This document shows, in pieces, positions 50,447 through 63,922 of a stretch of DNA of 64,000 nucleotides. How positions within the stretch are numbered: the first letter of the stretch is position 1; the number at the start of each line of letters is the position of its first letter. The notes below the pieces were generated by a model, which had not been told where the DNA came from, searched no databases, and saw nothing but the letters and a program-made list of their open reading frames with translations. Position numbers and translations under genes: made by a program. Source of the stretch: Acidimicrobiales bacterium (GTDB lineage: Bacteria; Actinomycetota; Acidimicrobiia; Acidimicrobiales; WLNW01); NCBI GenBank assembly GCA_039934635.1, contig JBDTLT010000002.1, positions 4,963 to 68,962 of the forward strand, read 5' to 3'.

Positions 50447-50977
50447 ATGACAGTGGAGAATTCCAGTGCGAGCGCATCTGCGATCGAGTTCTCGTCGCGG
50501 GGCAACACTCGCTGGATCGTGGTGCGGGGTCCGCTCGGTCGCGCCTTCGACCGCTGGCTGGTGCGCCTGACGGGGTTTTCGGTGATCACGTGGCAGTACT
50601 CCAAGGCCGGTGGCAACCCCTATCAACCGACGCTCCTGCTCACGACCATCGGGCGCAAATCGGGTCAATTGCGCCCGCGCGCGCTGCCGTATTACCCCGA
50701 CGAAGGCGGCCGTATGGTCGTCATCGGCTCGAATGGTGGCGGTCCTCGCGACCCCGACTGGGTGGGCAACGTGCGGGCCAATTCGGCGGCGTGGGTCTGT
50801 GTTCGCCGCAAGCGCCACGCCGTGCGCGCGCACGTTGCTGCGGGGGCGGAACGCCAACGCATCTTCGATCAGATCACCGCGACACGCGACTCGCTATCGC
50901 GCTACCAACAAAGGGCTTCGACGTTCGGTCGCGAGGTTCCGTTGGTGGTACTGGAACCGATCGAAGAAGTGCGTTAG
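50447..50977 (+). CDS. Deazaflavin(F420)-dependent nitroreductase/quinone-reductase family (Ddn-like)
   Basis: ATG at 50447 in ORF 50336..50977. ..LLLTTIGRKSGQLRPRALPYYPDEGGRMVVIGSNGGGPRDPDWVGNVRAN.. matches the Ddn-like split-barrel family pattern. Confidence 0.72.
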   Translation: MTVENSSASASAIEFSSRGNTRWIVVRGPLGRAFDRWLVRLTGFSVITWQYSKAGGNPYQPTLLLTTIGRKSGQLRPRALPYYPDEGGRMVVIGSNGGGPRDPDWVGNVRANSAAWVCVRRKRHAVRAHVAAGAERQRIFDQITATRDSLSRYQQRASTFGREVPLVVLEPIEEVR

Positions 50978-52221
50978 CTGACGGGCGCGGGGTTCTTCTT
51001 CGCGCCAGGCGTGTACTTGACCGGCAGGTGCTTGACGCCGCCGATGAAGTTGGAGCGCAACATCGAAGGCTCGGCCGTCATCGTCATGTCGGGGATGCGT
51101 TCGAGAATCTCGCGGAAGATCAGTTGCAGTTCCATACGGGCCAAGTTGGCGCCGAGGCAGAAGTGCGCGCCGCCGCCACCGAACGCGATGTGCTCGTTGG
51201 GCGACCGCGTGATGTCGAACGTGAACGGATCGTCGAAAACCTCTTCGTCGCGATTGGCCGAGGTGTGCCAGATGACGACCTTGTCGCCCTGTTTGAACTC
51301 CTGGCCGCGGAACTCGGTGTCGGCGAGGGCAGTGCGCCGGAAGTGGTACACCGGAGTGGCCCAGCGCAAGATTTCTTCGATCGCGGTGTCGAGCGACGCG
51401 TCGAGATTGTTGCTCAGCTCTTTGTATTGCTCGGGGTTCTCCATCAGCGCCCACATGCCCCACGCGGTGGTGTTGCGGGTGGTCTCGTTGCCCGCCACCG
51501 TGAGCAGCATCATGAACATGTCGAATTCGATCTCGGAGAGCCGGTCGCCCTCGACCTCGGCGTTGATGAGCTTGGTCACGATGTCGTCACGCGGATCGGT
51601 CTTGCGCTTCTTGGCCAACTCGTTGACGTACATGTAGAGCTCCATCGACGCATTCATGCCGTCGTCGCCCTTCGCGTACTCGGGGTCGTCGACACCGATC
51701 ATGCGGTTGGACCAGTCGAAGAGGAGCTTGCGGTCTTCTTGCGGCACGCCCATGATCTCGGCGATCGCCTGCAGCGGCAGCTCGCTCGCGAGGTCTTCGA
51801 CGAAGTCGCACGAACCGCGCTCGATGATGTTGTCGACGATGAGGATGGCGCGGTGCTCGAGGTACTTCTCGAGCAAACCGATCATGCGGGGAGTGAACCC
51901 CTTGTTGACCAACAGCCGGTAGCGGGTGTGCTTGGGCGGGTCCATGTACAGCATCATCAGACCGCGCGGATCGACGCCGCCCTGCTCGCCGAATTCGCCC
52001 GGGTCGAGGATGCTCACGCCGCCCGCCTCGGACGAATAGGTCGCGGTGTCGCGGTTGATGGCGATCAGGTCGCCATGGCGAACGACGTTCCAGAAGCCCT
52101 TGCCACCGGGAAGGTCGTGCCACGACACGGGGTCCTCGGCCCGCAGCCGCTTGAACATCTCGTGGTGCTGGAGCTTTTGGAAACGGTCGAGATCGAGCAG
52201 GTCGATGCCGGGCAGTGCCAT
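50974..52221 (-). CDS. Cytochrome P450, CYP125-like (steroid/lipid terminal hydroxylase family)
   Basis: ATG at 52221 in ORF 50974..52674. Heme loop FGGGGAHFCLGANLAR, AGNETTRN I-helix, EILRWATPV K-helix. Long stretches resemble mycobacterial CYP125 as I recall it. Confidence 0.9.
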   Translation of the reverse strand: MALPGIDLLDLDRFQKLQHHEMFKRLRAEDPVSWHDLPGGKGFWNVVRHGDLIAINRDTATYSSEAGGVSILDPGEFGEQGGVDPRGLMMLYMDPPKHTRYRLLVNKGFTPRMIGLLEKYLEHRAILIVDNIIERGSCDFVEDLASELPLQAIAEIMGVPQEDRKLLFDWSNRMIGVDDPEYAKGDDGMNASMELYMYVNELAKKRKTDPRDDIVTKLINAEVEGDRLSEIEFDMFMMLLTVAGNETTRNTTAWGMWALMENPEQYKELSNNLDASLDTAIEEILRWATPVYHFRRTALADTEFRGQEFKQGDKVVIWHTSANRDEEVFDDPFTFDITRSPNEHIAFGGGGAHFCLGANLARMELQLIFREILERIPDMTMTAEPSMLRSNFIGGVKHLPVKYTPGAKKNPAPVS

Positions 52222-52311
52222 GAGAGCCTCCGGGGGCCGGTCAAACTTCGAGTCTAGGGCCCGGGTGCCCCACGGCACACCCGCGTGGGTTGGGTGCGCC
52301 ATAGTTGGCGC

Positions 52312-53352
52312 ATGGAATTTCGCACGCTGGGGCGCTCGGGCGTGCAGGTCGGTGCCCTGGGGCTCGGCACGATGATGTTCGGGCGGGGCGGCAACCGCGA
52401 CGCCGACGAGTGCGTGCGCATGGTGCACCGGTCGATCGACGCCGGTGTCAATCTGTTCGACACCGCCGACGGCTATGGGCTCGGCGACAGCGAAGCGATA
52501 CTGGGCCGAGCGGTCGCCGATCGGCGGGACCAGGCCATCGTGGCGACGAAGTGCTTCTTCCCTCACGGGCGGGACCCCAACCGCCGCGGGGGCTCGCGGC
52601 GTTGGATCGTGCAGGCGTGCGACGAATCGCTGCGCCGGTTCGGCCTCGATCACATCGATCTCTATCAACTGCACCGTCTCGATCCGGCCACCGATCGAGA
52701 AGAGTCACTCGGCGCGCTCACCGACCTCGTGCGCGCCGGCAAGGTGCGCATGGTGGGTACGTCAGCGGCGAGCGCTCCCGAGATCGTCGAGTTGATGTGG
52801 GCGGCCGAGCGCGCCGGCACGGTGCGCCCGGTGAGCGAACAGCCGATGTACTCGATCTTCACGCGCAGGATCGAGCGCGCCGTGTTGCCGGCGTGCCAGC
52901 GCTACGGCGTCGGGACCATCGTCTATGGCCCGCTCAACGGTGGCTGGCTGACCGGCAAGTACACGCGCGATGCACCACCAGACGCGGGGACGCGTGCGGC
53001 CCGCGAATTCGTCACGAAGCAGTGGTGGGACTACGAGCGCGCCGAGATCCAACGCAAGTTCGATCTCGTCGACGAGTTGCACTCGCTGGCACAGCAAGCG
53101 GGCATCACGTTGCCGCACCTTGCGCTGGCGTTCACACTCGCGCACCCTGGCGTGTCAGCCGCGATCATCGGGCCTCGCACCACCGCGCAACTCGATGACC
53201 TACTCGCCGGTGCCGAGGTGCGACTCGACGCGGACGTCCTCGATCGCATCGACGCGCTCGTCGCGCCCGGGACCGATGTCGATCCCGCCAACGAAGTGTC
53301 CGTCGACGGCGCGCTGGCCGCTAGCCAACGGCGGCGGCCGCCGACTCGATGA
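52312..53352 (+). CDS. Aldo/keto reductase
   Basis: ATG at 52312 (MEFRTLGRSGVQVGALGLGTMMFG). DTADGYG and IDLYQLHR motifs. Confidence 0.9.
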   Translation: MEFRTLGRSGVQVGALGLGTMMFGRGGNRDADECVRMVHRSIDAGVNLFDTADGYGLGDSEAILGRAVADRRDQAIVATKCFFPHGRDPNRRGGSRRWIVQACDESLRRFGLDHIDLYQLHRLDPATDREESLGALTDLVRAGKVRMVGTSAASAPEIVELMWAAERAGTVRPVSEQPMYSIFTRRIERAVLPACQRYGVGTIVYGPLNGGWLTGKYTRDAPPDAGTRAAREFVTKQWWDYERAEIQRKFDLVDELHSLAQQAGITLPHLALAFTLAHPGVSAAIIGPRTTAQLDDLLAGAEVRLDADVLDRIDALVAPGTDVDPANEVSVDGALAASQRRRPPTR

Positions 53353-54745
53353 CGGTGCCGCGGAAGAACTCGGGATCGACACCGTAGAGCTTGACCTGGT
53401 TGGTGAATACGAAGTCGCGGAACTGTTCTTCGTCGAGCAGGCCGTGTTCGACGAGCTCCCACGCTTCTTCGAGCGGTTCGGCGAAATCAGGTACATCCCA
53501 GTGCCCGATGTCGCTGCCCATGATCGCCGGCACACGCGCTCCAAGTGGATTGACGCGAGGATCGAACGCGAGCGCCACGAGTGGATCGTCCGCCTCGCAA
53601 CCCCAATAGAAGTTGGTGCAGAACTGGTCGCGGATGTCTTCGACGCTGCGCACACCGCTCCGCGCGTAGTCATCGCGTTCCGCGTCGCGTCCGGTGCCCA
53701 ACGATGACGCCAGTTCGTCGGGGCCGAAGCGGGCGAGGTCGCTGCCATACGTGGCGATCAACTCCGCGTAGCGCGCCCGGTCGATGTTGTCGGGATTGAG
53801 CCGCGCCATGTTCGGCCCGCCGCGTTTCTTCCACCGCGCGACGAGATCACCGTAGAGCCGGACGCCCACTGCGACGCCGCCTTCGAGCAGCGCGATCCGC
53901 AGATCGGGGAAGCGCTTGGTGACGCCACCGAAGAACAACGACCGCGCCAAGAGATCGCCTGATGCGGCGAAGTGGCCGCAGTGGTTGAACATGTAGTTGC
54001 TGCTCGATGCCCGATCGGAGAAACCCATCGACGGGGAGTGACAGGCGAGCGGCACCTTGAGTTCGACGGCTCGCTTCCAGAACGGGTCGTAGTCATGCGG
54101 GCTGTCGATGCCGTACGCGTCGATGAAACGGATGCGATGGCGTATCTCGGGGGAGGCATCGGCGAATTGTGGAACCGGTCGCGCTACGAAACTTGCGATA
54201 CAGCCCACCTTCAATCCGAGCTTGCGGATGTGTTCGAGTTCGGCGATCGCCTCGTCCGGCGTGTGCATGGGGATGAGCCCGGCCACGGTCATGCGGTCCG
54301 AATACGGGCGGTACTGCTCGGCGATCCATTCGTTGAACCAATGGCACAACCCGCGCCGCGCGGTCTCGTCATCGTTGTGCATCAAGCCGAACGAGACGGT
54401 GGGATAGAGCACGGAGAAGTCGATGCCCGCCTCGTCGAGGCGTTCGTAGTACATCTTCGGGATGGTGACGGTGGCGAAGTAGTCGGTGTCGCCGGGCGGA
54501 ACCCAGAACGGTGGAGCCGGGTTGCGGGTGAAGTGACGCTCTTCGGTCGTCTGCTGTCCCCATGGCTTGCCGAAGGCCGACATCGGCGCGCCGGCAAACG
54601 GGTTGTAGGCCTCGAGGAGTTCGCCCGCGCCGTGATCGCGTACGTAGGCATGGAACGGCTGACGGAGATCTACGTAGTGCCCGTCACCGTCGATCACCGG
54701 ATGTTGCAGCTTCGCTCGCAGTCGCGCTGAGCCCGTCGTCACCAT
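53321..54745 (-). CDS. Amidohydrolase-2 family metal-dependent hydrolase/decarboxylase-like protein
   Basis: ATG at 54745 in ORF 53321..54859. VIDGDGHYV N-terminal metal motif and ..MGSDIGHWD.. near the C-terminus. 474 aa. Confidence 0.78.
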   Translation of the reverse strand: MVTTGSARLRAKLQHPVIDGDGHYVDLRQPFHAYVRDHGAGELLEAYNPFAGAPMSAFGKPWGQQTTEERHFTRNPAPPFWVPPGDTDYFATVTIPKMYYERLDEAGIDFSVLYPTVSFGLMHNDDETARRGLCHWFNEWIAEQYRPYSDRMTVAGLIPMHTPDEAIAELEHIRKLGLKVGCIASFVARPVPQFADASPEIRHRIRFIDAYGIDSPHDYDPFWKRAVELKVPLACHSPSMGFSDRASSSNYMFNHCGHFAASGDLLARSLFFGGVTKRFPDLRIALLEGGVAVGVRLYGDLVARWKKRGGPNMARLNPDNIDRARYAELIATYGSDLARFGPDELASSLGTGRDAERDDYARSGVRSVEDIRDQFCTNFYWGCEADDPLVALAFDPRVNPLGARVPAIMGSDIGHWDVPDFAEPLEEAWELVEHGLLDEEQFRDFVFTNQVKLYGVDPEFFRGTVIESAAAAVG

Positions 54746-54806
54746 GGCGCCTCCAACCCTCGTGGCGCAAACATTCTCGCGCGGACAGGCGGCACCGGTA
54801 GCGTGA

Positions 54807-56138
<1,332 letters not shown>

Positions 56139-56267
56139 CGCGCTCGATGCGCTGTTTCCAGCCAAATTAACGGCAGCCTCGGCAGTCAACAAAAGCACAA
56201 TTTTCGGTAAAGGTCACCCACCGCGCGGACCGAAATACCTGGGATCCAGTGAGCCGGGAGACCCAGC

Positions 56268-57584
56268 ATGCCCGCGACTGACATCGTTTCCAGTTCCGAT
56301 GCCGCGCACCTTTTGCGTCGAGTGGGCTTTGGCCCGACCGCCGCGGAGATCCAATCATTGACGGGCCTGACCCGGCAGGCGGCCGTCGCGTCGGTGATGA
56401 ACTTCGCCGGTGCCCCGGCCGTGGTGAGACCGGCCGTCGACGACCGCGCCAACGAGTGGGATTGCTACGTCGACGCGCAGGAGTGGTGGGTCGAGCGCAT
56501 GCGCACGACCACCACACCACTGCAAGAGAAGATGACGCTGTTCTGGCACAACCACTTCTGTTCGAGCCAGGACAAGCTCTTCGACATGGGCGCGATGTTC
56601 GACCAGAACCAGAAGTTCCGCACGCTCGGCATGGGCAGCTTCGAGACGCTGTGCCAGGCCATCGCCATCGATCCGGCGATGCTCGTCTACCTCGACAACG
56701 CGACGAATCGTGTTGGCGCGGAGCAGGAGAACTTCGCCCGTGAGCTCATGGAGCTCTTCACGTTGGGTGTCGGCCACTACACCGAGCAGGACGTCATCGC
56801 GATGGCGAAGGCGTGGACCGGGCACAACATCGTGGGGTGGAACGGGTCGTTCACCGACCCCACCTACGTCTACTACCCGGCGCGCCACGACAACACGAAC
56901 AAGACACTGTTCGGCATCACGCAGAACTGGAACGGACCCGCGACGATCACCGAGATCTGCACCGGTTCGAAGAAGACCGAGTGCACGCAATTCATCGCCC
57001 GCAAGATGTGGAAGTACTTCGCCCACACCACGCCGTCCGACACGCTGGTCAACGCTCTGGCGGGAGTGTTCGCCGGCACGATGGTCATCAGCGATCTGGT
57101 CGGCGCAATCTTGTTGCACGACGAATTCTGGGCGCCGGCGAGTCGCTGGGCGTTGGTCAAGAGCCCGGTGGAGTTCGTCGTCGACGTGCTGCGCCGTCTC
57201 GGGCGCCCCTCGACCGTGGCCGGTCTGCCATGGGCCGTCGAAGGCATGGGACAAGTGCTCTTCAACCCGCCCAACGTGGCCGGTTGGGGCCAGAACGCCT
57301 ACTGGTTGTCGACGGCGACGGCGTGGGCCCGTGGCGGCTGGCTGAGCAACCTGAAGTGGCAGCTCGACGGCTGGAACTACTGGGACGAATTTCACCTCTC
57401 GGGCGGCAGCGCGCTCCCGGTGGCGACCGCCGTGCAGAAGATCTTCGACGACCTCGGCATCTTCGAACCGTCGCCCGCAACTCGCACCCAACTGACGTCA
57501 TGGTGGAACGCCGAACCGACCTGGGCGAGACAACCCAACGCGTTGATCGTCGGCGCGATGTGTCCCGAATTCAACGTTGTGTGA
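56268..57584 (+). CDS. DUF1800 domain-containing protein
   Basis: 438 aa. HLLRRVGFGPT N-terminus and TLFWHNHFCSS motif, both typical of DUF1800. No signal peptide seen. Confidence 0.8.
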   Translation: MPATDIVSSSDAAHLLRRVGFGPTAAEIQSLTGLTRQAAVASVMNFAGAPAVVRPAVDDRANEWDCYVDAQEWWVERMRTTTTPLQEKMTLFWHNHFCSSQDKLFDMGAMFDQNQKFRTLGMGSFETLCQAIAIDPAMLVYLDNATNRVGAEQENFARELMELFTLGVGHYTEQDVIAMAKAWTGHNIVGWNGSFTDPTYVYYPARHDNTNKTLFGITQNWNGPATITEICTGSKKTECTQFIARKMWKYFAHTTPSDTLVNALAGVFAGTMVISDLVGAILLHDEFWAPASRWALVKSPVEFVVDVLRRLGRPSTVAGLPWAVEGMGQVLFNPPNVAGWGQNAYWLSTATAWARGGWLSNLKWQLDGWNYWDEFHLSGGSALPVATAVQKIFDDLGIFEPSPATRTQLTSWWNAEPTWARQPNALIVGAMCPEFNVV

Positions 57585-59993
57585 GTGGAGCGAGCGATGA
57601 CGATGCGACGTATGCACAACGACGACAAGAAGCGCCGTGAATTCAGCCGGCGCCGGTTCTTGCAGGCGGCACTGGTCACTGGATCAGCGGCCGCAGTCGA
57701 TCCGAAGTTCTTCTTCGGTGCCGACCCCGCCTTTGCCGGCCCGCCGTTGGGACCCTCCGATCACATCTTGGTGTTGATCGAGTTCGACGGCGGCAACGAC
57801 GGGCTCAACACGCTGATCCCGTACACGAACGGGTCGTACTACAGCTTGCGCGGCGGGCTCGCGATCCCGGCCAACACCGTGTTGCCCGTGGGTGACGGTC
57901 TCGGCTTCCATCCGAGCTTGCCGTACCTCAAGTCGCGTTGGGATGGTGGCGACGTCGCCATCATCCGGGGCATCGGACACGCCGATCTCGACCACAGTCA
58001 CTTCTCTTGTATGGCCAAACTGCAATCAGGCACCGCCGGCAACGCGCCCACCTTGACCGGGTGGGTCGGGCGCTATCTCGACAACGCGGGGCTCGACGGT
58101 CTTGGCGCGATCTCGGTTGCCGACGGCGGCGTGCCCTTGCTGCTGCGCGGCAACTCGGCCGAAGTGACAGGTCTCCCGTCATGGTCGGGTGGGCTATTCG
58201 GTGCCGATCGCACGCAGACGGCGGATCGTGTCACCTACGAGTCGTTGAGTGCGATCAACACCACCGACGGCGGCAAGGGCTATTGGGGTGGCCAGGTCGG
58301 TCAGACGATCCACAGCGCGCTTGCGACCGCACAACTCGTCAACCCGATCTATGCGCCGGCGATCGACGACGACCATCGCCTCGAACGTGATCTCATCCTG
58401 TGCGCTCGCATCATCAACCTCGACCTCGGCGCGCGCGTGCTGCACGTGCGGCTCGGGGGCTTCGACAATCACGACGATCAGCCCAATGACCACGCCACGC
58501 TGCTGAGCGAGTTCAACCGAGCGCTCGACGCATTCTTCGTGAACCTCGCACCGCAGTATCAATCGCGGGTCACGCTCGCGACGTTCTCCGAATTCGGTCG
58601 GCGCGTTCGCCCGAACGACTCGCTCGGCACCGACCATGGCACCGCGTCGACGGCATTCGTCATCGGTAGCCGTGTGAAGGGCGGCTTCTACGGCGAGCAG
58701 CCGTCGCTGACGAACCTCGACTCGCGCGGCGACCTGCGCCACAACATCGACTACCGGTCGATGTTCGCGACGCTGCTGTCGGGTTGGCTGCGCGCCGATG
58801 ACGCGCAGGTGCTGGGGCAGTCGTTCGCGAAGCTCGACATGTTCGAGACCGGCACGTCGTGCGCCGCGGGTTTGATCGACAACATCCCGCTCGCGAATTC
58901 GTACAACGCCATTCGTCCCGTTCGCATCCTCGACACGCGGACCGGCAACGGTGCGACCAAGGCAATGATCGGGCCGGGCGGTGTCATCGATCTGGTGGTG
59001 GCGGGCCGCGGCACGGTGCCGCCGAGTGGCACCGGTGCGGTCGTCATGAACATGACCGTCGCCGACCCGACCGCGGCGGGCTATCTCACCGTATGGCCGA
59101 CCGGGGATGCGCGACCCGAGGCGTCGAACCTCAACTTCGTGCCGGGTCAGGCCGTGCCGAACTTGGTGCTCGCCAAGCTCGGGCAGGGCGGCAAGGTCAG
59201 CATCTACAACTTCACTGGCTCGACCAACGTCATCGCGGATGTGATGGGGTGGTTCCCGCTCACCAATAGCTACCAGCCACTCGTTCCGCGGCGGTTGCTC
59301 GATACCCGCACCGGCACCGGTGCTCCTGTTGCCCGCGTGGGCGCCAACCAGACGCTGAAGCTCTCGGTGCTCGGTCGTGGTGGGGTGCCGGCGTCAGGTG
59401 TCGACGCGGTCGTGCTCAACGTGACCGCGGCGGAGTCGTCGATGACCGGCTACCTCACGGTGTGGCCTACGGGACAACCGCTGCCGAACTCGTCGAACCT
59501 CAACTTGGCGCCCGGCCGCGTAGTGCCGAACCTCGTCATCTCGAAGCTGGGCAACGACGGCACGGTCAGCTTCTACAACTATGCGGGCGACACCCACATC
59601 ATCGCCGACGTCATGGGCTGGTTCCCCGCAGCGAGCGGATTTCACTCGCTCAGCCCGTTGCGCATCCTCGACACGCGCGTCGGCAACGGTGTGCGCGGTC
59701 CGATCGGCGCGCGTCGTTCGATCGACGCCGACGGATTGTGTCGCGGTGGTGTCCCGTCGAACGCGAAGGCGATCGTCATCAACGTCACTGCCGTCGCGCC
59801 GACGGCGGGTGGCTACATCACCGTGTGGCCCAGCGGCGAGGCGCGGCCCGATTCGTCGAACCTCAACTTCGTGCCGGGCCAGACCGTGCCGAACCTCGTC
59901 ATCACCAAGGTCGGTATCGAGGGCATGGTCAGCTTCTACAACGACGCCGGCGACACCCACGTCATCGCCGACGTCATGGGCTGGTTCGAATAG
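57585..59993 (+). CDS. Tat-signal DUF1501 (sulfatase/alkaline-phosphatase-fold) protein fused to three C-terminal repeat domains
   Basis: SRRRFLQAALVTGSAAAV twin-arginine signal. DUF1501 motifs LIEFDGGNDGLNTLIPY, GIGHADLDHSHF, FSEFGRRVRPNDSLGTDHGTAS. 802 aa, whereas I recall roughly 400-450 aa as usual for the family. The start directly abuts the DUF1800 stop (TGA GTG). Alternative ATGs at 57597, 57603 and 57612. Confidence 0.85.
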   Translation: MERAMTMRRMHNDDKKRREFSRRRFLQAALVTGSAAAVDPKFFFGADPAFAGPPLGPSDHILVLIEFDGGNDGLNTLIPYTNGSYYSLRGGLAIPANTVLPVGDGLGFHPSLPYLKSRWDGGDVAIIRGIGHADLDHSHFSCMAKLQSGTAGNAPTLTGWVGRYLDNAGLDGLGAISVADGGVPLLLRGNSAEVTGLPSWSGGLFGADRTQTADRVTYESLSAINTTDGGKGYWGGQVGQTIHSALATAQLVNPIYAPAIDDDHRLERDLILCARIINLDLGARVLHVRLGGFDNHDDQPNDHATLLSEFNRALDAFFVNLAPQYQSRVTLATFSEFGRRVRPNDSLGTDHGTASTAFVIGSRVKGGFYGEQPSLTNLDSRGDLRHNIDYRSMFATLLSGWLRADDAQVLGQSFAKLDMFETGTSCAAGLIDNIPLANSYNAIRPVRILDTRTGNGATKAMIGPGGVIDLVVAGRGTVPPSGTGAVVMNMTVADPTAAGYLTVWPTGDARPEASNLNFVPGQAVPNLVLAKLGQGGKVSIYNFTGSTNVIADVMGWFPLTNSYQPLVPRRLLDTRTGTGAPVARVGANQTLKLSVLGRGGVPASGVDAVVLNVTAAESSMTGYLTVWPTGQPLPNSSNLNLAPGRVVPNLVISKLGNDGTVSFYNYAGDTHIIADVMGWFPAASGFHSLSPLRILDTRVGNGVRGPIGARRSIDADGLCRGGVPSNAKAIVINVTAVAPTAGGYITVWPSGEARPDSSNLNFVPGQTVPNLVITKVGIEGMVSFYNDAGDTHVIADVMGWFE
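58896..59990 (+). repeat. Three in-frame tandem copies of a 369-bp (123-aa) module (third copy 357 bp)
   Basis: Units run 58896-59264, 59265-59633 and 59634-59990. Shared motifs are R(I/L)LDTRxGxG, GY(L/I)TVWP(T/S)G, SNLN(F/L)xPGxxVPNLV, and VS(I/F)YNxxGxT(N/H)(V/I)IADVMGWF. Confidence 0.92.
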
Positions 59994-60025: not shown

Positions 60026-60856
60026 ATGCTCGAGACAGAACCGTTGCGCGGCAAGACCGCGGTGATCACCGGTGGGGCCGGCGGTATGGGCGCCGGTATC
60101 TCCCGGTTATTCGCGGCCGCGGGTGCGATGGTCGTGGTGAACGACGTCGACGCGGACCTGCTGGCCACGACGCAGCGCGAGATCGAACATCGTGACGGTC
60201 TGGTCGTGGCGGTCCACGGCGACATCACCGAGGCCGAGACGGTGACGCGCTTGCGCGAGACGGCGATCGAGGCCGGCCGCGGGCGCGTCGACATTTTGGT
60301 CAACAACGTGGGCGACTTCCGCCCCGGTCATGGATTGTTCGTGCGTACCGACGAGGAAGGTTGGCGGGCGCAGTACGCGATCACGCTCGAGCACGTCTTT
60401 CGCTGCATGCACGCGTTCATACCGATCATGCAGGCGCAGGGGTCCGGCGCGATCGTCAACAACGCCACGGTCGAAGCAATGCGGGGCATTCCCTACAACA
60501 GCGTCTACTCCGCCTTCAACGCGGGTGTCGTCGCGTTCACCAAGAGCATGGCGGTCGAACTCGGCCGTGACGGCATCCGGGTCAACTGCATCGCCCCCGA
60601 CATGGCCGACACCTTGCAGACGCCGGCGGAGGCCATGCTGCGCGGCCGCGATCCAGAGCTGATCAAGAGCTGGATCCCGCTCGGCCGCTTCGGTTTGGCC
60701 GAGGACTACGCCAAGGTGGTGCTGTTCTTGGCCAGCGACATGGCGAGCTATGTAACCGGCCACTGCATACCCGTCGATGGCGGCACGATCGCCGCCAGCG
60801 GCTGGTACGGCCGGTATCAGAAGAAGGGCTTCACCAACTTGCCCGACAACCCCTGA
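60026..60856 (+). CDS. SDR-family oxidoreductase with atypical YxxxN active-site motif
   Basis: ATG at 60026 in ORF 59462..60856. TGGAGGMGAG, NNVG, then YSAFN instead of YxxxK. Confidence 0.85.
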   Translation: MLETEPLRGKTAVITGGAGGMGAGISRLFAAAGAMVVVNDVDADLLATTQREIEHRDGLVVAVHGDITEAETVTRLRETAIEAGRGRVDILVNNVGDFRPGHGLFVRTDEEGWRAQYAITLEHVFRCMHAFIPIMQAQGSGAIVNNATVEAMRGIPYNSVYSAFNAGVVAFTKSMAVELGRDGIRVNCIAPDMADTLQTPAEAMLRGRDPELIKSWIPLGRFGLAEDYAKVVLFLASDMASYVTGHCIPVDGGTIAASGWYGRYQKKGFTNLPDNP

Positions 60857-60878
60857 CCGGCTCTCAGGGCTCGAGGTC

Positions 60879-61979
60879 TCAGGGCTTCAGCGTCGCCAGC
60901 CCGCGGCGGTACGAGTACCAACGGCCCGTGTCGAAGTCGAACAGCTTGCACGCACGCGTCGTGCGGATGTAATCGCTGAGGCGCATCTTGCGTTCGGCGA
61001 CGATCCCGGGGAACGCATCTTTGATGGCTTCGGCAGCCCGCGTCAGGTGATAGCAGGGGATGCGCACATCGACGTGATGCGGCACGTGGATGAAGATCCA
61101 GTGGAAGAAGAAGTTGAAACCCTTCGGCACGCGCAGGATCGTCGTACCGGTGAGCTGCGCCTTGACTGGAGTCCAACCCTTGCGCAGCCATGCGATGCGG
61201 GGATCGATGTGATGGACGTAGACGGTCCAACCGATGATCCATCCGAACAACAAGAAGGGGACGACCAGCAGCTTCATCACGAGCCAGACGGCGTTGAAGA
61301 TGTCGCCCGAGAAGAGGCCACCCAACACCAATACGCCGAATGTCGTGATGGTGGCGACGGTGGTGACGAGTAGCCGATCACGCTTGATGCCGCGAACCCA
61401 CTTGGCCGGTGGCGTGAACATCATCATGCGCTTGAGCCAGATGTTGCGCAGGTAGTACGCGCCGGCGCCGAACATCGACCACTCGAGTCGGTGGACGAGT
61501 CGTTTCGTCGTGCTCATCTCGGCGTAGTCCGCCGGGGTGACCGGGTGCCAGACGAAGTCCATGCCCTGCTTGGTCGTGTGCCGGTGATGGATGTGGTTGT
61601 GCCCGAGCTTCCAGGCATCGAACAGGTGCAGCGAGGGCAGCATCAACATGCGGCCGATGACGCCGTTGAGGCGACGGTTGGCAAAGAGCGCGCCGTGCGC
61701 GGCGTCGTGGCCGAGCACGAACAAGCCGGCGATCGAGAACCCGGTGAGGAGCCACAGCAGCCCGACGAGCCACCACGCGTGCGCGAAGTACAGCGCCACG
61801 ATCGCCGCGAGATAGATGGCGAGGTCGCGCGCCACGAGGCCGAGGCCGCGACTGGTCGGCTGCGTGTAGCAGGACTCGGGTATGGCGTCGATGACCTCGA
61901 TCAGTGACCCGGGCATATGTGGCCCGTCGTCGTCGCGGCGCACTGGCTCTCGCGTGCGAACTACACCATCGATGGTCAC
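60879..61979 (-). CDS. Membrane fatty-acid desaturase
   Basis: 366 aa. His boxes HDAAH, HNHIHHRH and HVPHHV. GTG start after AAGGAG (alternative ATG at 61916). Confidence 0.88.
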   Translation of the reverse strand: MTIDGVVRTREPVRRDDDGPHMPGSLIEVIDAIPESCYTQPTSRGLGLVARDLAIYLAAIVALYFAHAWWLVGLLWLLTGFSIAGLFVLGHDAAHGALFANRRLNGVIGRMLMLPSLHLFDAWKLGHNHIHHRHTTKQGMDFVWHPVTPADYAEMSTTKRLVHRLEWSMFGAGAYYLRNIWLKRMMMFTPPAKWVRGIKRDRLLVTTVATITTFGVLVLGGLFSGDIFNAVWLVMKLLVVPFLLFGWIIGWTVYVHHIDPRIAWLRKGWTPVKAQLTGTTILRVPKGFNFFFHWIFIHVPHHVDVRIPCYHLTRAAEAIKDAFPGIVAERKMRLSDYIRTTRACKLFDFDTGRWYSYRRGLATLKP

Positions 61980-62072
61980 GGGGCTCCTTGGAATGCGGCG
62001 ACAGGGTGCTGTGCCGCGTTCATTCGTGGGGTCTCGGAATCTGGCGTCGTTCGGAGACGAGCCGACAAGAGT

Positions 62073-62273
62073 TCAGACAGGGCGGACGTTGACAGCCTCT
62101 TGACCTTTGCGGCCTTCGCCGATTTCGAACTCGACGGCTTGGCCCTCGGTGAGGGATCGGAAGCCGCTCCCGGTGATGTTGGAAAAGTGGACGAACACAT
62201 CGCCACCGTCAGGTTGGGAGATGAAGCCGTAGCCCTTCTCGTTGTTGAAGAACTTGACGGTACCTGTGGGCAT
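62073..62273 (-). CDS. cspA: Cold-shock protein (CspA family)
   Basis: 66 aa. [18 protein letters not shown] (RNP1) and VFVHF (RNP2). Confidence 0.97.
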
Positions 62274-62396
62274 TGCAACTTTCCTTTACTGTCCTGGCGT
62301 CGGAAGTGGCCCTGTTCACACCCATTCACGTGGGGAACTGGGTGCGACTCCGGTCTGCTGCGCGAACGCGCGGTCAGGTTACCGCGATGGCTGGGG

Positions 62397-62423
62397 CGAA
62401 GCGGTGCCGCTTCGAACCTTTTT
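62397..62423. terminator. GC hairpin plus T5 run in the AAA-csp intergenic region
   Basis: Read directly: cgaagcg-gtgc-cgcttcg (62397-62414), then aaccttttt. The U-run is on the + strand only. On the minus strand the hairpin lies 90 nt after the AAA ATPase stop. Confidence 0.35.
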
Positions 62424-62503
62424 GGTGGCACGGTAGGGGGGTTCTGGGCCCAATGGCCCACCCACGCGGCAGCCGTCGCCCGAAGCCCGAAGCGCGCGGG
62501 AGA

Positions 62504-63922
62504 TCATCGATCGTGGCGCCAATCGGCGCCGGTCTCGACTCCGGCGACATCGGCCGGCAGCAAGACGGTGAGATCGTCGTCGGTCGGTGCCGCGATGGCG
62601 ACGACGCGCGCCGCGTGGCGGGCGATGGCGGCTTCGAACAGGTTGCGCGATTCGCGTCCGTTGCCGAAGCCTTTGCCCCGTGGCAGCGCATCGAGCCACG
62701 CGTGGACGGCATCGGCGGTCGTATCGGCCAGGGTGTAGCCGGCGCGCGCCGCCGCCTGCTGGAAGATCGTGACGAGCTCCGCGGTCGAGTAGTCGGGGAA
62801 GACGATGGTCTTGGGGAATCGTGACGCGAGCCCTGGATTCGAGCCGACGAGTTGCGCCATCTCGTCGGGGTATCCCGCCATGATGCAGACCATGCGATCG
62901 CGTCGGTCCTCGACGAGTTTGACGACGGTGTCGATCGCTTCTTGACCGAAGTCCCGTTCGCCGCCACGAGCCAGCGAGTACGCCTCGTCGATCAACAAGA
63001 CTCCCTGATCGGCCTGCTCGAAAACTGCCTGCACCTTGGTGGCGGTCTGCCCGACGTAGCCGGCGACGAGACCGCTGCGATCGGTCTCGACGAGATGGCC
63101 TTTGGCTACGACGCCGAGCGCCCGGTAGATCTGCGCGAGCAGCCGCGCGACGGTGGTCTTGCCGGTGCCGGGGTTGCCGACAAAGACGAGGTGACGGCTG
63201 GCGGCGGTCGTCTTGAGTCCGCGCTCCTTGCGCATCTTTTGCACCTGCAACAGCGCGGTGACCAACTTGACCTCGTGTTTGACGTCGGCCATACCGACGA
63301 GGTCGTCGAGGTCGGTCATGACTTCTTCGAGGGGCCGCGCCGGTTGCGCGGCGACCCCAGCGGCATTGGTGCCCGAATCGGTGCCCGTCGATGCGGCCGC
63401 CGTGGACGAATTACGCACTCCCGACTGATCCATCGTCGCCAGCAACGTCGTGCGGTAGCGCTCGATGGTCGAGAGCTCGACGTCGGACGTGTAGTCGTCG
63501 ATCGAGACCGTGGTGAACAGGATGCGCATGGCGAAGTCGTAGTACACCGACGAATGTCGCGTGCCTGCGGCGCGGTCGGCAGACACGATCTCTGCGAACA
63601 ACGGCGACGCCATGTCGAGGAACGAACGCTTGCCCGCGACGAGGCCTGCGCTGCGCACGTCGGGAGGCGTGATGTCGCGGCGCCCGAGATCGGGGAACGA
63701 GCGCTCGAGCGCGGCGACGTACGCGCGCAGCTCGCTGTCGGACTGTGCGCCGTCGCAGTCGATGACGCCGGCGGCCAAGTTCAACGCGTCGCGCGCGAGG
63801 TCGGCCCGTAGCTGCGCAATCGGCCGGTGGAGCGGATCGGGGCCGAGCGATACCAGCGCGCGTGCGAGTTCGGTGACGAACTCGTCGATCACGTTCGCCA
63901 AGACATCGTTGGCTCCGTACAC
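62504..63922 (-). CDS. AAA+ ATPase (CbbX/SpoVK/EccA-like) with TerB-like N-terminal domain
   Basis: 472 aa. Walker A FVGNPGTGKTTVARLLA, Walker B LLIDEAYSL, and ..GNGRESRNLFE... The N-terminal ~170 aa has DGxxSxxE-type repeats (CDGAQSDSELRAYVAAL; DDYTSDVELSTIERY). GTG start. Confidence 0.88.
   Translation of the reverse strand: MYGANDVLANVIDEFVTELARALVSLGPDPLHRPIAQLRADLARDALNLAAGVIDCDGAQSDSELRAYVAALERSFPDLGRRDITPPDVRSAGLVAGKRSFLDMASPLFAEIVSADRAAGTRHSSVYYDFAMRILFTTVSIDDYTSDVELSTIERYRTTLLATMDQSGVRNSSTAAASTGTDSGTNAAGVAAQPARPLEEVMTDLDDLVGMADVKHEVKLVTALLQVQKMRKERGLKTTAASRHLVFVGNPGTGKTTVARLLAQIYRALGVVAKGHLVETDRSGLVAGYVGQTATKVQAVFEQADQGVLLIDEAYSLARGGERDFGQEAIDTVVKLVEDRRDRMVCIMAGYPDEMAQLVGSNPGLASRFPKTIVFPDYSTAELVTIFQQAAARAGYTLADTTADAVHAWLDALPRGKGFGNGRESRNLFEAAIARHAARVVAIAAPTDDDLTVLLPADVAGVETGADWRHDR

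Follow-up and report, generated by a model that had tools for sequence, protein, structure and literature searches.

Tat (twin-arginine translocation) hitch-hiker complexes, in which a subunit lacking a signal crosses the membrane with a signal-bearing partner, are few to our knowledge and nearly all of them are cofactor-rich redox enzymes. In Escherichia coli, a single Tat signal is reported to serve a multi-subunit folded complex in the case of HybO/HybC, DmsAB, and PaoABC (PMC4273604; Rodrigue et al. 1999), and PaoABC is a precedent for hitch-hiking (PMC4273604). In Streptomyces, one product of the bicistronic melC1-melC2 operon has a Tat leader and the other, which has no signal, is secreted in complex with it (PMC2758597). 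The products of the homologous melD operon are not secreted and MelD2 is intracellular (PMC2758597). Here, we describe a pair of adjacent genes for a DUF1800 and a DUF1501 protein in a 64,000-nucleotide stretch of DNA from an Acidimicrobiales bacterium (assembly GCA_039934635.1, contig JBDTLT010000002.1, positions 4,963 to 68,962), which we refer to as the window and by whose numbering all positions are given. We suggest, at a probability of about 0.5, that the two genes form a bicistronic two-protein system in which DUF1800 is exported as a hitch-hiker on Tat-borne DUF1501. We favour this reading because DUF1800 is probably extracytoplasmic yet has no export route of its own in this organism.

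The pair resembles melC in being an actinobacterial bicistronic operon with a Tat leader on one product and no signal on the other. The roles are, however, exchanged: in melC the signal is on the small helper, MelC1, and the enzyme is the passenger, whereas here it is the putative enzyme that has the signal and the 48-kDa partner that would ride. The complex is proven for MelC and putative for the present pair, and the two systems are unrelated in sequence and fold. The contrast between melC and melD parallels the lineage-dependent signal status of DUF1800 described below. A DUF1800-DUF1501 complex would have a predicted size of ~127 kDa, within the range of the E. coli hitch-hikers; those, however, are redox enzymes with NiFe, molybdopterin, and FeS cofactors and dedicated chaperones, whereas our pair has a hydrolase/transferase fold and no redox cofactor motif. 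The DUF1501 protein shares with the alkaline-phosphatase superfamily both the fold and an Asp / Ser-His / Asp-x-His / Asp-His pattern (assigned by position), but the characterised members of that superfamily have no obligatory helical partner gene. The superfamily does include Tat-exported enzymes, PhoD and PhoX. In modules of Planctomycetes and Verrucomicrobia, Tat-bearing DUF1501 proteins are encoded beside other partners (PMC3542564). These modules are similar to ours in that a Tat- or signal-bearing DUF1501 adjoins a large partner in a conserved arrangement, but the partner is a protein with cytochrome-c motifs (PSCyt1/2, PSD1) rather than DUF1800. The DUF1800-DUF1501 pairing itself has been noted in proteobacterial chitin-synthase operons, with a Tat motif on DUF1501 and co-transfer with the chitin synthases (PMC5122149); in contrast, the window has neither a chitin synthase nor an epimerase beside the pair, nor another conserved neighbour. 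An earlier note on this DNA, made from the sequence alone, had proposed the hitch-hiker arrangement and had stated that the pair has no assigned biochemical function. The latter is borne out by the literature searched, in which no paper mentioning DUF1800 or DUF1501 assigns a function to either family; nor did we find there a proposal of hitch-hiking for the pair, and a paper on the Rhizobium leguminosarum secretome has no link to it. The features of the locus are as follows.

56268 to 57584, plus strand: DUF1800 gene, 438 residues plus the TGA stop codon; Pfam PF08811
57585 to 57596, plus strand: intergenic spacer of 12 nucleotides, holding a Shine-Dalgarno-like GGAG at 57587 to 57590
57597 to 57737, plus strand: Tat-type leader of the DUF1501 protein, with a charged n-region, SRRRFLQ (nucleotides 57645 to 57665), the h-region AALVTGSAAAV, and a putative cleavage site between AFA and G
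57753 to 58895, plus strand: DUF1501 domain, Pfam PF07394; about residues 57 to 437 of the 802-residue open reading frame (ORF)
58902 to 59270, plus strand: repeat 1, with PxRxLDTRxG, GGVP, NVT, YLTVWP, RPxxSNLN, GQxVPNLV, and ADVxGWF
59271 to 59639, plus strand: repeat 2, the query of the module search
59640 to 59990, plus strand: repeat 3, followed by the TAG stop codon at 59991 to 59993

The hidden Markov model (HMM) searches that the earlier note had recommended place both proteins above the Pfam cutoffs. DUF1800 matches PF08811 over profile positions 1 to 418 of 419, starting from residue 14 (E 1.9e-93, 314 bits against a cutoff of 26.1), and more than 7,900 homologs were scored in a single search; DUF1501 matches PF07394 with E 2.6e-20 (73.4 bits against a cutoff of 27). 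The DUF1800 gene has a GGGAG 7 nucleotides 5′ of its ATG, and a longer N-terminus is impossible because the same frame has a TGA at 56250, five codons 5′ of that ATG. By hydropathy, nothing in the first 70 residues resembles the hydrophobic stretch of a signal, and all 120 close homologs start 7 to 15 residues ahead of the AAHLLRRxGFG motif and have no signal peptide. The absence of a signal on DUF1800, as originally described, thus holds. An upstream start or a cryptic signal would have counted against hitch-hiking in the view of the earlier note; both are ruled out by the TGA and the hydropathy, so the reading is not refuted on this account.

The AlphaFold2 model of DUF1800, made with a 70-sequence alignment, has a predicted local distance difference test (pLDDT) of 94.7 and a predicted template modelling score (pTM) of 0.93. 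Helices predominate in it, with residues 186 to 219 forming a small beta insert, and the conserved N-terminal motif sits within the folded domain (helix 9 to 19, pLDDT >90). The recognisable motifs are the N-terminal AAHLLRRVGFG, LFWHNHF, YLDN..N, EQENFARELMELFTLG, WTGH, HD, and PPNVAGWG. About 35 positions are invariant in the same alignment, with His, Glu, Arg, Asn, and Trp frequent among them (for example H14, R17, R18, W93-H94, N144, N147, E154-N155, R158-E159, E162, H207-D208, and P334-P335), a pattern that points to a site of binding or catalysis rather than to a passive scaffold. Neither a fold relative nor a sequence relative of DUF1800 was found in the PDB. Four of the 70 homologs gave weak matches to the planctomycete-specific domain PSD2 (Pfam PF07624, best E 0.0021), which may be noise or may reflect a distant relationship with the partner proteins in the planctomycete DUF1501 modules.

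The junction of the two genes is less simple than the abutting stop and start described in the earlier note. The TGA at 57582 to 57584 is indeed followed directly by a GTG at 57585 to 57587, both ORFs are in the same frame, and the DUF1501 ORF runs from this GTG to the TAG ending at 59993 on the plus strand (802 residues). The real start is probably the ATG at 57597, and the GTG, the first possible start, is likely unused. We prefer the ATG because the GGAG lies 6 nucleotides 5′ of it, because a 93% identical homolog (P0121) begins MTMRRM at its equivalent, and because gene calls on related contigs put 8 to 11 nucleotides between the DUF1800 and DUF1501 genes. The coordinates given originally were therefore right, but with the likely start 12 nucleotides away the genes would be tightly coupled, not abutting.

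The DUF1501 leader reads MTMRRMHNDDKKRREF-SRRRFLQ-AALVTGSAAAV-DPKFFFGADPAFA and is followed by GPPLG, its end before that point being EFSRRRFLQAALVTGSAAAVDPKFFFGADPAFA. Its h-region is mildly hydrophobic and the junction of AFA with G resembles a signal-peptidase site. The motif RR-x-[FLIVM]-[LIVMF] is present in 117 of 120 DUF1501 homologs, and it is on this conservation, not on a curated HMM call, that the probable assignment to Tat is based. A simple TatA motif scan recognised no tat gene in the window.

A different leader motif, D-I-S-x-x-D-A-x-R-L-L-S, marks an Acidimicrobiia clade of DUF1501 paralogs (homologs P0148 to P0240; loci L012, L015, L017, and L018). Of 120 DUF1501 homologs, 72 have it, against 0 of 4800 control windows, and it lies at about residue 5 of the leader, mostly 10 to 20 residues (commonly 11 or 16) ahead of the twin arginines. 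It is loosely like the DUF1800 N-terminus, DAAHLLRR; the DUF1501 leader of our window does not have it. Motifs in the n-region of other Tat leaders are chaperone-binding sites (TorA/TorD and DmsA/DmsD), and DISxxDAxRLLS could be an element that binds a chaperone or partner.

We surveyed 80 loci from other genomes, one genome per species, locating both genes with HMMs and reading the N-termini from the DNA. The pairing is as widespread as the earlier note had stated: DUF1501 lies directly downstream of DUF1800 on the same strand at 75 of the 80 loci, in at least 10 phyla, with short gaps and several 4-nucleotide overlaps. Three of the five exceptions are at a contig edge. The only clear exceptions on contigs of sufficient length are L030 and L054, both from Armatimonadota, which have no same-strand DUF1501 within ~3.7 kb downstream of DUF1800. 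A clear N-terminal RR motif with an h-region is seen in at least 66 of the 76 partner DUF1501 ORFs. Leaders on DUF1800 itself are distributed as follows.

Pseudomonadota: 28 of 30 loci, 22 Sec-like and 6 flagged as Tat-like (L051 being the convincing case when read by eye)
Actinomycetota: flagged at 2 of 25 (L010 and L021)
Verrucomicrobiota: 0 of 6
Planctomycetota: 0 of 1
Armatimonadota/Abditibacteriota: 0 of 5
Chloroflexota: 0 of 1
Paenibacillus: 0 of 3
Obscuribacterales: 0 of 2
WPS-2: 0 of 1
Acidobacteriota: 1 of 5 ORFs in 4 loci (L065)
Fraserbacteria: 1 of 1 (L023, Tat-like)

On inspection, the two actinobacterial flags look like start-codon artefacts, and the seven leader-poor lineages outside the actinobacteria together give 0 of 19. 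A typical proteobacterial leader is MLKTIVVALSYFLGLSAQAAG, which is followed by MGYDDARLLL and ends just ahead of the conserved HLLxR motif. One metagenome-assembled genome (MAG) labelled Streptomycetaceae (L037) has a Sec-like DUF1800 leader, with an N-terminal sequence of the proteobacterial type. Two further MAGs, from Fraserbacteria (L023) and Rhizobiaceae (L051), have a Tat-like leader on DUF1800 itself (RRAFFGKALLLGSGAAP and GRRAMLGGTALMAYAAP, respectively), and in these both partners would therefore use Tat independently. The closest homologs of both window proteins are found in metagenome bins of Acidimicrobiia/Ilumatobacteraceae, where the 800-residue, repeat-bearing architecture is common.

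Because nearly all the proteobacterial orthologs have N-terminal leaders, we conclude that, in at least one large group, the site of action of mature DUF1800 is probably extracytoplasmic. Outside Proteobacteria, signal-less DUF1800 beside Tat-bearing DUF1501 is, as far as the N-termini indicate, the rule, and this applies to both single- and double-membrane bacteria. If the family is extracytoplasmic and yet has forms with no signal, then the signal-less DUF1800 would need a carrier. This contrast between lineages is the strongest argument for the hitch-hiker reading of the earlier note, although an indirect one.

The catalytic domain of the DUF1501 protein aligns well with PF07394 only at profile positions 233 to 342, its N-terminal half being divergent, and other Pfam families matched the catalytic domain and the repeats only as noise at E ≤10. 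Counting residues from the ATG at 57597, a 67-sequence alignment has G65-G66-N67-D68, S134-H135, D290, H292, E332-F333-G334-R335, and D346-H347 as invariant or near-invariant positions. The GGNDG, DHSHF, and GTDHG motifs, from which the earlier note had recognised an alkaline-phosphatase/sulfatase-like pattern, are present and coincide with the conserved N67/D68, S134/H135, and D346/H347. Structural comparison supports that recognition. For this, DUF1800, the natural leader, and the DUF1501 domain were modelled with AlphaFold2 as one chain of 884 residues, using an unpaired block alignment of 45 rows, in which four artefactual 'fusion' sequences served as bridging rows for MAFFT and which was checked row by row. 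Foldseek matched the linked model to 29 PDB chains at E ≤1e-3 (probability 1.00, E 3e-5 to 1e-3), all of the alkaline-phosphatase superfamily; they include 3lxq, 6xlp, 6fny, 7oz9, 1p49, 4uor, and 4kjd, and represent PbgA/YejM, LtaS, and choline, carbohydrate, and steroid sulfatases. Alkaline phosphatase itself falls just past the cutoff, at E 1.3e-3. We assign these matches to the DUF1501 half because the DUF1800 half has no PDB fold matches. Identity to the superfamily is ~10% with low TM-scores, and an HMM search of PDB sequences with DUF1501 and the repeats gave no match at E ≤1; for these reasons, the model places the DUF1501 domain as a distant member of the superfamily. By position, the conserved residues would be the metal ligands and nucleophile of the superfamily, the candidates being D68, S134-H135, D290/H292, and D346-H347. 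We rejected a formylglycine (type I) sulfatase, as residues 1 to 450 contain no C/S-x-P/A-x-R motif, and the likeliest reading is that S134 acts as a serine nucleophile.

The earlier note identified the domain correctly but made no mention of the C-terminal 45% of the protein, which consists of three tandem 123-residue repeats (residues 440 to 802 counted from the GTG at 57585; nucleotides 58902 to 59990). They are visible in the DNA as direct repeats spaced 363 to 369 nucleotides apart and have no Pfam, NCBIfam, or PDB-sequence match. A search with one repeat against 1.84 billion representative proteins (E ≤1e-3) matched 25,815 of them, nearly always with three copies and sometimes with four to six. 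The Pfam domains found beside the repeat, in 54 proteins, are RCC1, PQQ propellers, subtilase S8, fn3, Big_9, cadherin-like, NHL, NPCBM, GH43, and matrixin, and the N-terminus is signal- or transmembrane-like in 114 of 147 repeat carriers. Judged by these associations, the repeat is a promiscuous extracellular module that has no family model and is very common in proteins of actinobacterial type, most of its carriers being secreted proteins with several domains. By analogy with other triplet wall-binding modules, its role may be surface retention or ligand binding. Its presence in the DUF1501 protein is an independent argument for work outside the cell.

Our model is as follows. The two genes would constitute a bicistronic operon for an enzyme system that operates outside the cytoplasm. 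The DUF1501 protein would fold in the cytoplasm, where it would probably load metal at its alkaline-phosphatase-type site, and would then be exported in the folded state via Tat and cleaved after AFA. DUF1800 would bind the folded DUF1501 before export and cross the membrane with it, and the three repeats could then keep DUF1501, together with any bound partner, on the surface of this single-membrane bacterium. The likeliest chemistry would be that of a hydrolase or transferase acting, by way of the serine nucleophile, on an ester of the phosphate, sulfate, or phosphonate type, and the cluster of polar and aromatic invariant residues in DUF1800 may bind the substrate or form a second site. Extended to the families as a whole, the model describes a widespread enzyme of the alkaline-phosphatase superfamily that is non-redox, acts outside the cytoplasm, and has two subunits. 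Its helical subunit, with no solved relative, would have switched its export route (Sec in Proteobacteria; Tat hitch-hiking in Actinomycetota, Bacillota, the PVC group, Armatimonadota, Chloroflexota, and others), and in Acidimicrobiia its complex would be held on the surface by the triple repeat. This extension is tentative, and we put its chances at somewhat less than even.

Several results weigh against hitch-hiking. The Pfam TAT_signal model (PF10518) scores the DUF1501 leader at 16.8 bits, under its 22.7-bit cutoff, and the NCBIfam model (TIGR01409) gives no Tat-signal match at E ≤0.01; the Tat signal that the earlier note called clear is thus upheld by SRRRFLQ, the AFA site, and the conserved motif but not by its profile score. 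In the linked chain, both domains are folded (mean pLDDT 81.5) and the leader is disordered (residues 439 to 490), but the pTM is 0.58, close to the ~0.54 that we estimate for two folded but unplaced domains and below our estimate of ~0.80 for a confident complex. This is a weak test, having been run with monomer weights on an alignment of 45 rows that was shallow and unpaired. A search with both domains concatenated found no genuine DUF1800-DUF1501 fusion (Rosetta stone). It returned four proteins carrying both domains: P0241, P0254, and P0249 have out-of-frame (frameshift) junk between the domains, and the fourth is a protein-level assembly made by Plass, with HZT65233.1 and HZT65234.1 present as separate proteins in its 90% cluster. 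Proteomic evidence on the location of the family is confined to one mention, of two of its DUF1800 members in a vesicle fraction (PMC12981691). Finally, in Proteobacteria DUF1800 travels by Sec while DUF1501 keeps Tat; therefore, assembly before export is not required there, and DUF1501 uses Tat for its own reasons. The original hitch-hiker reading accordingly keeps its conserved pair, its Tat-type DUF1501, and its signal-less DUF1800, but pre-export assembly cannot be regarded as intrinsic to the pair.

A signal-less DUF1800 might simply stay in the cytoplasm, where it would either mature or proofread DUF1501 in the manner of TorD, DmsD, and NapD or carry out, in the cytoplasm, one step of the pathway that it shares with DUF1501, with only DUF1501 being exported. 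The missing signal is compatible with this, as is the undocked linked chain (with its shallow, unpaired alignment), and the DISxxDAxRLLS motif found in over half of the DUF1501 homologs has a likeness to chaperone sites. However, the 28 proteobacterial orthologs with cleavable, mostly Sec-type leaders make a pre-export maturation role hard to reconcile with the family, since a pre-export factor cannot be periplasmic. Moreover, a protein of 438 residues with ~35 invariant positions has the look of an enzyme or binding subunit, not of a small chaperone, Pfam links it to neither the TorD nor the NapD family, and the DUF1501 leader in the window has no n-region motif. We therefore consider a cytoplasmic DUF1800 unlikely. 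An improbable alternative, to which we give less credence again, is that DUF1800 leaves the cell independently of DUF1501, by an unrecognised signal or by non-classical secretion, and that the partners meet or act in sequence after export. Post-export assembly must already happen in Proteobacteria, and the linked chain, read with the same limits, does not predict docking. Nevertheless, the DUF1800 N-terminus offers neither a hydrophobic segment nor an alternative start, its conserved motif belongs to the folded domain and follows the cleavage site in the leader-bearing orthologs, so that it is not a signal, and we found no support for any other export mechanism.

The shared frame of the two ORFs, with only a TGA between them, and the database entries that join both domains could indicate that a part of the product is made as a single polypeptide by read-through of the TGA. 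This we regard as very improbable. The frame is the same in only 18 of 76 homologous pairs, under the one-third expected by chance, and programmed read-through was rejected on this lack of enrichment. The joined entries are frameshift junk or Plass read-throughs, and an internal Tat leader would not serve as an N-terminal signal. Same-frame ORFs with a single TGA have given rise to spurious 'fusions' in public catalogues, the Plass assemblies P0243 and P0298.

The genes around the pair are as follows.

50974 to 56138 and 60027 to 63922 (flanks): cytochrome P450, aldo-keto reductase, amidohydrolase-like ORF, argininosuccinate synthase (argG), short-chain dehydrogenase, fatty-acid desaturase, and AAA+ ATPase

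The short-chain dehydrogenase starts at the ATG at 60027, 33 nucleotides past the DUF1501 stop. The flanking gene order recurs on related Acidimicrobiia contigs, no functional link of the flanking genes to the pair is evident, and on comparison of the loci the argG, short-chain dehydrogenase, P450, and aldo-keto reductase genes appear to be lineage synteny only, the pair alone being conserved. A scan for promoters and terminators found no terminator and, as its sole promoter-like site, a weak one within argG, but the high GC content of the genome makes such a scan uninformative.

Both families and their pairing were already known; what would be new is a candidate non-redox hitch-hiker pair and an undescribed extracellular repeat module. 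Should hitch-hiking prove wrong, the pair would be an ordinary, already-catalogued DUF operon. The contrast between phyla in which DUF1800 has a Sec leader and those in which it has none provides a natural experiment for hitch-hiking. If our suggestion is right, two large domains that have no known function would gain a place in the cell and a starting point for their study, and the range of known co-export would extend to a hydrolase-type pair that occurs in many phyla.

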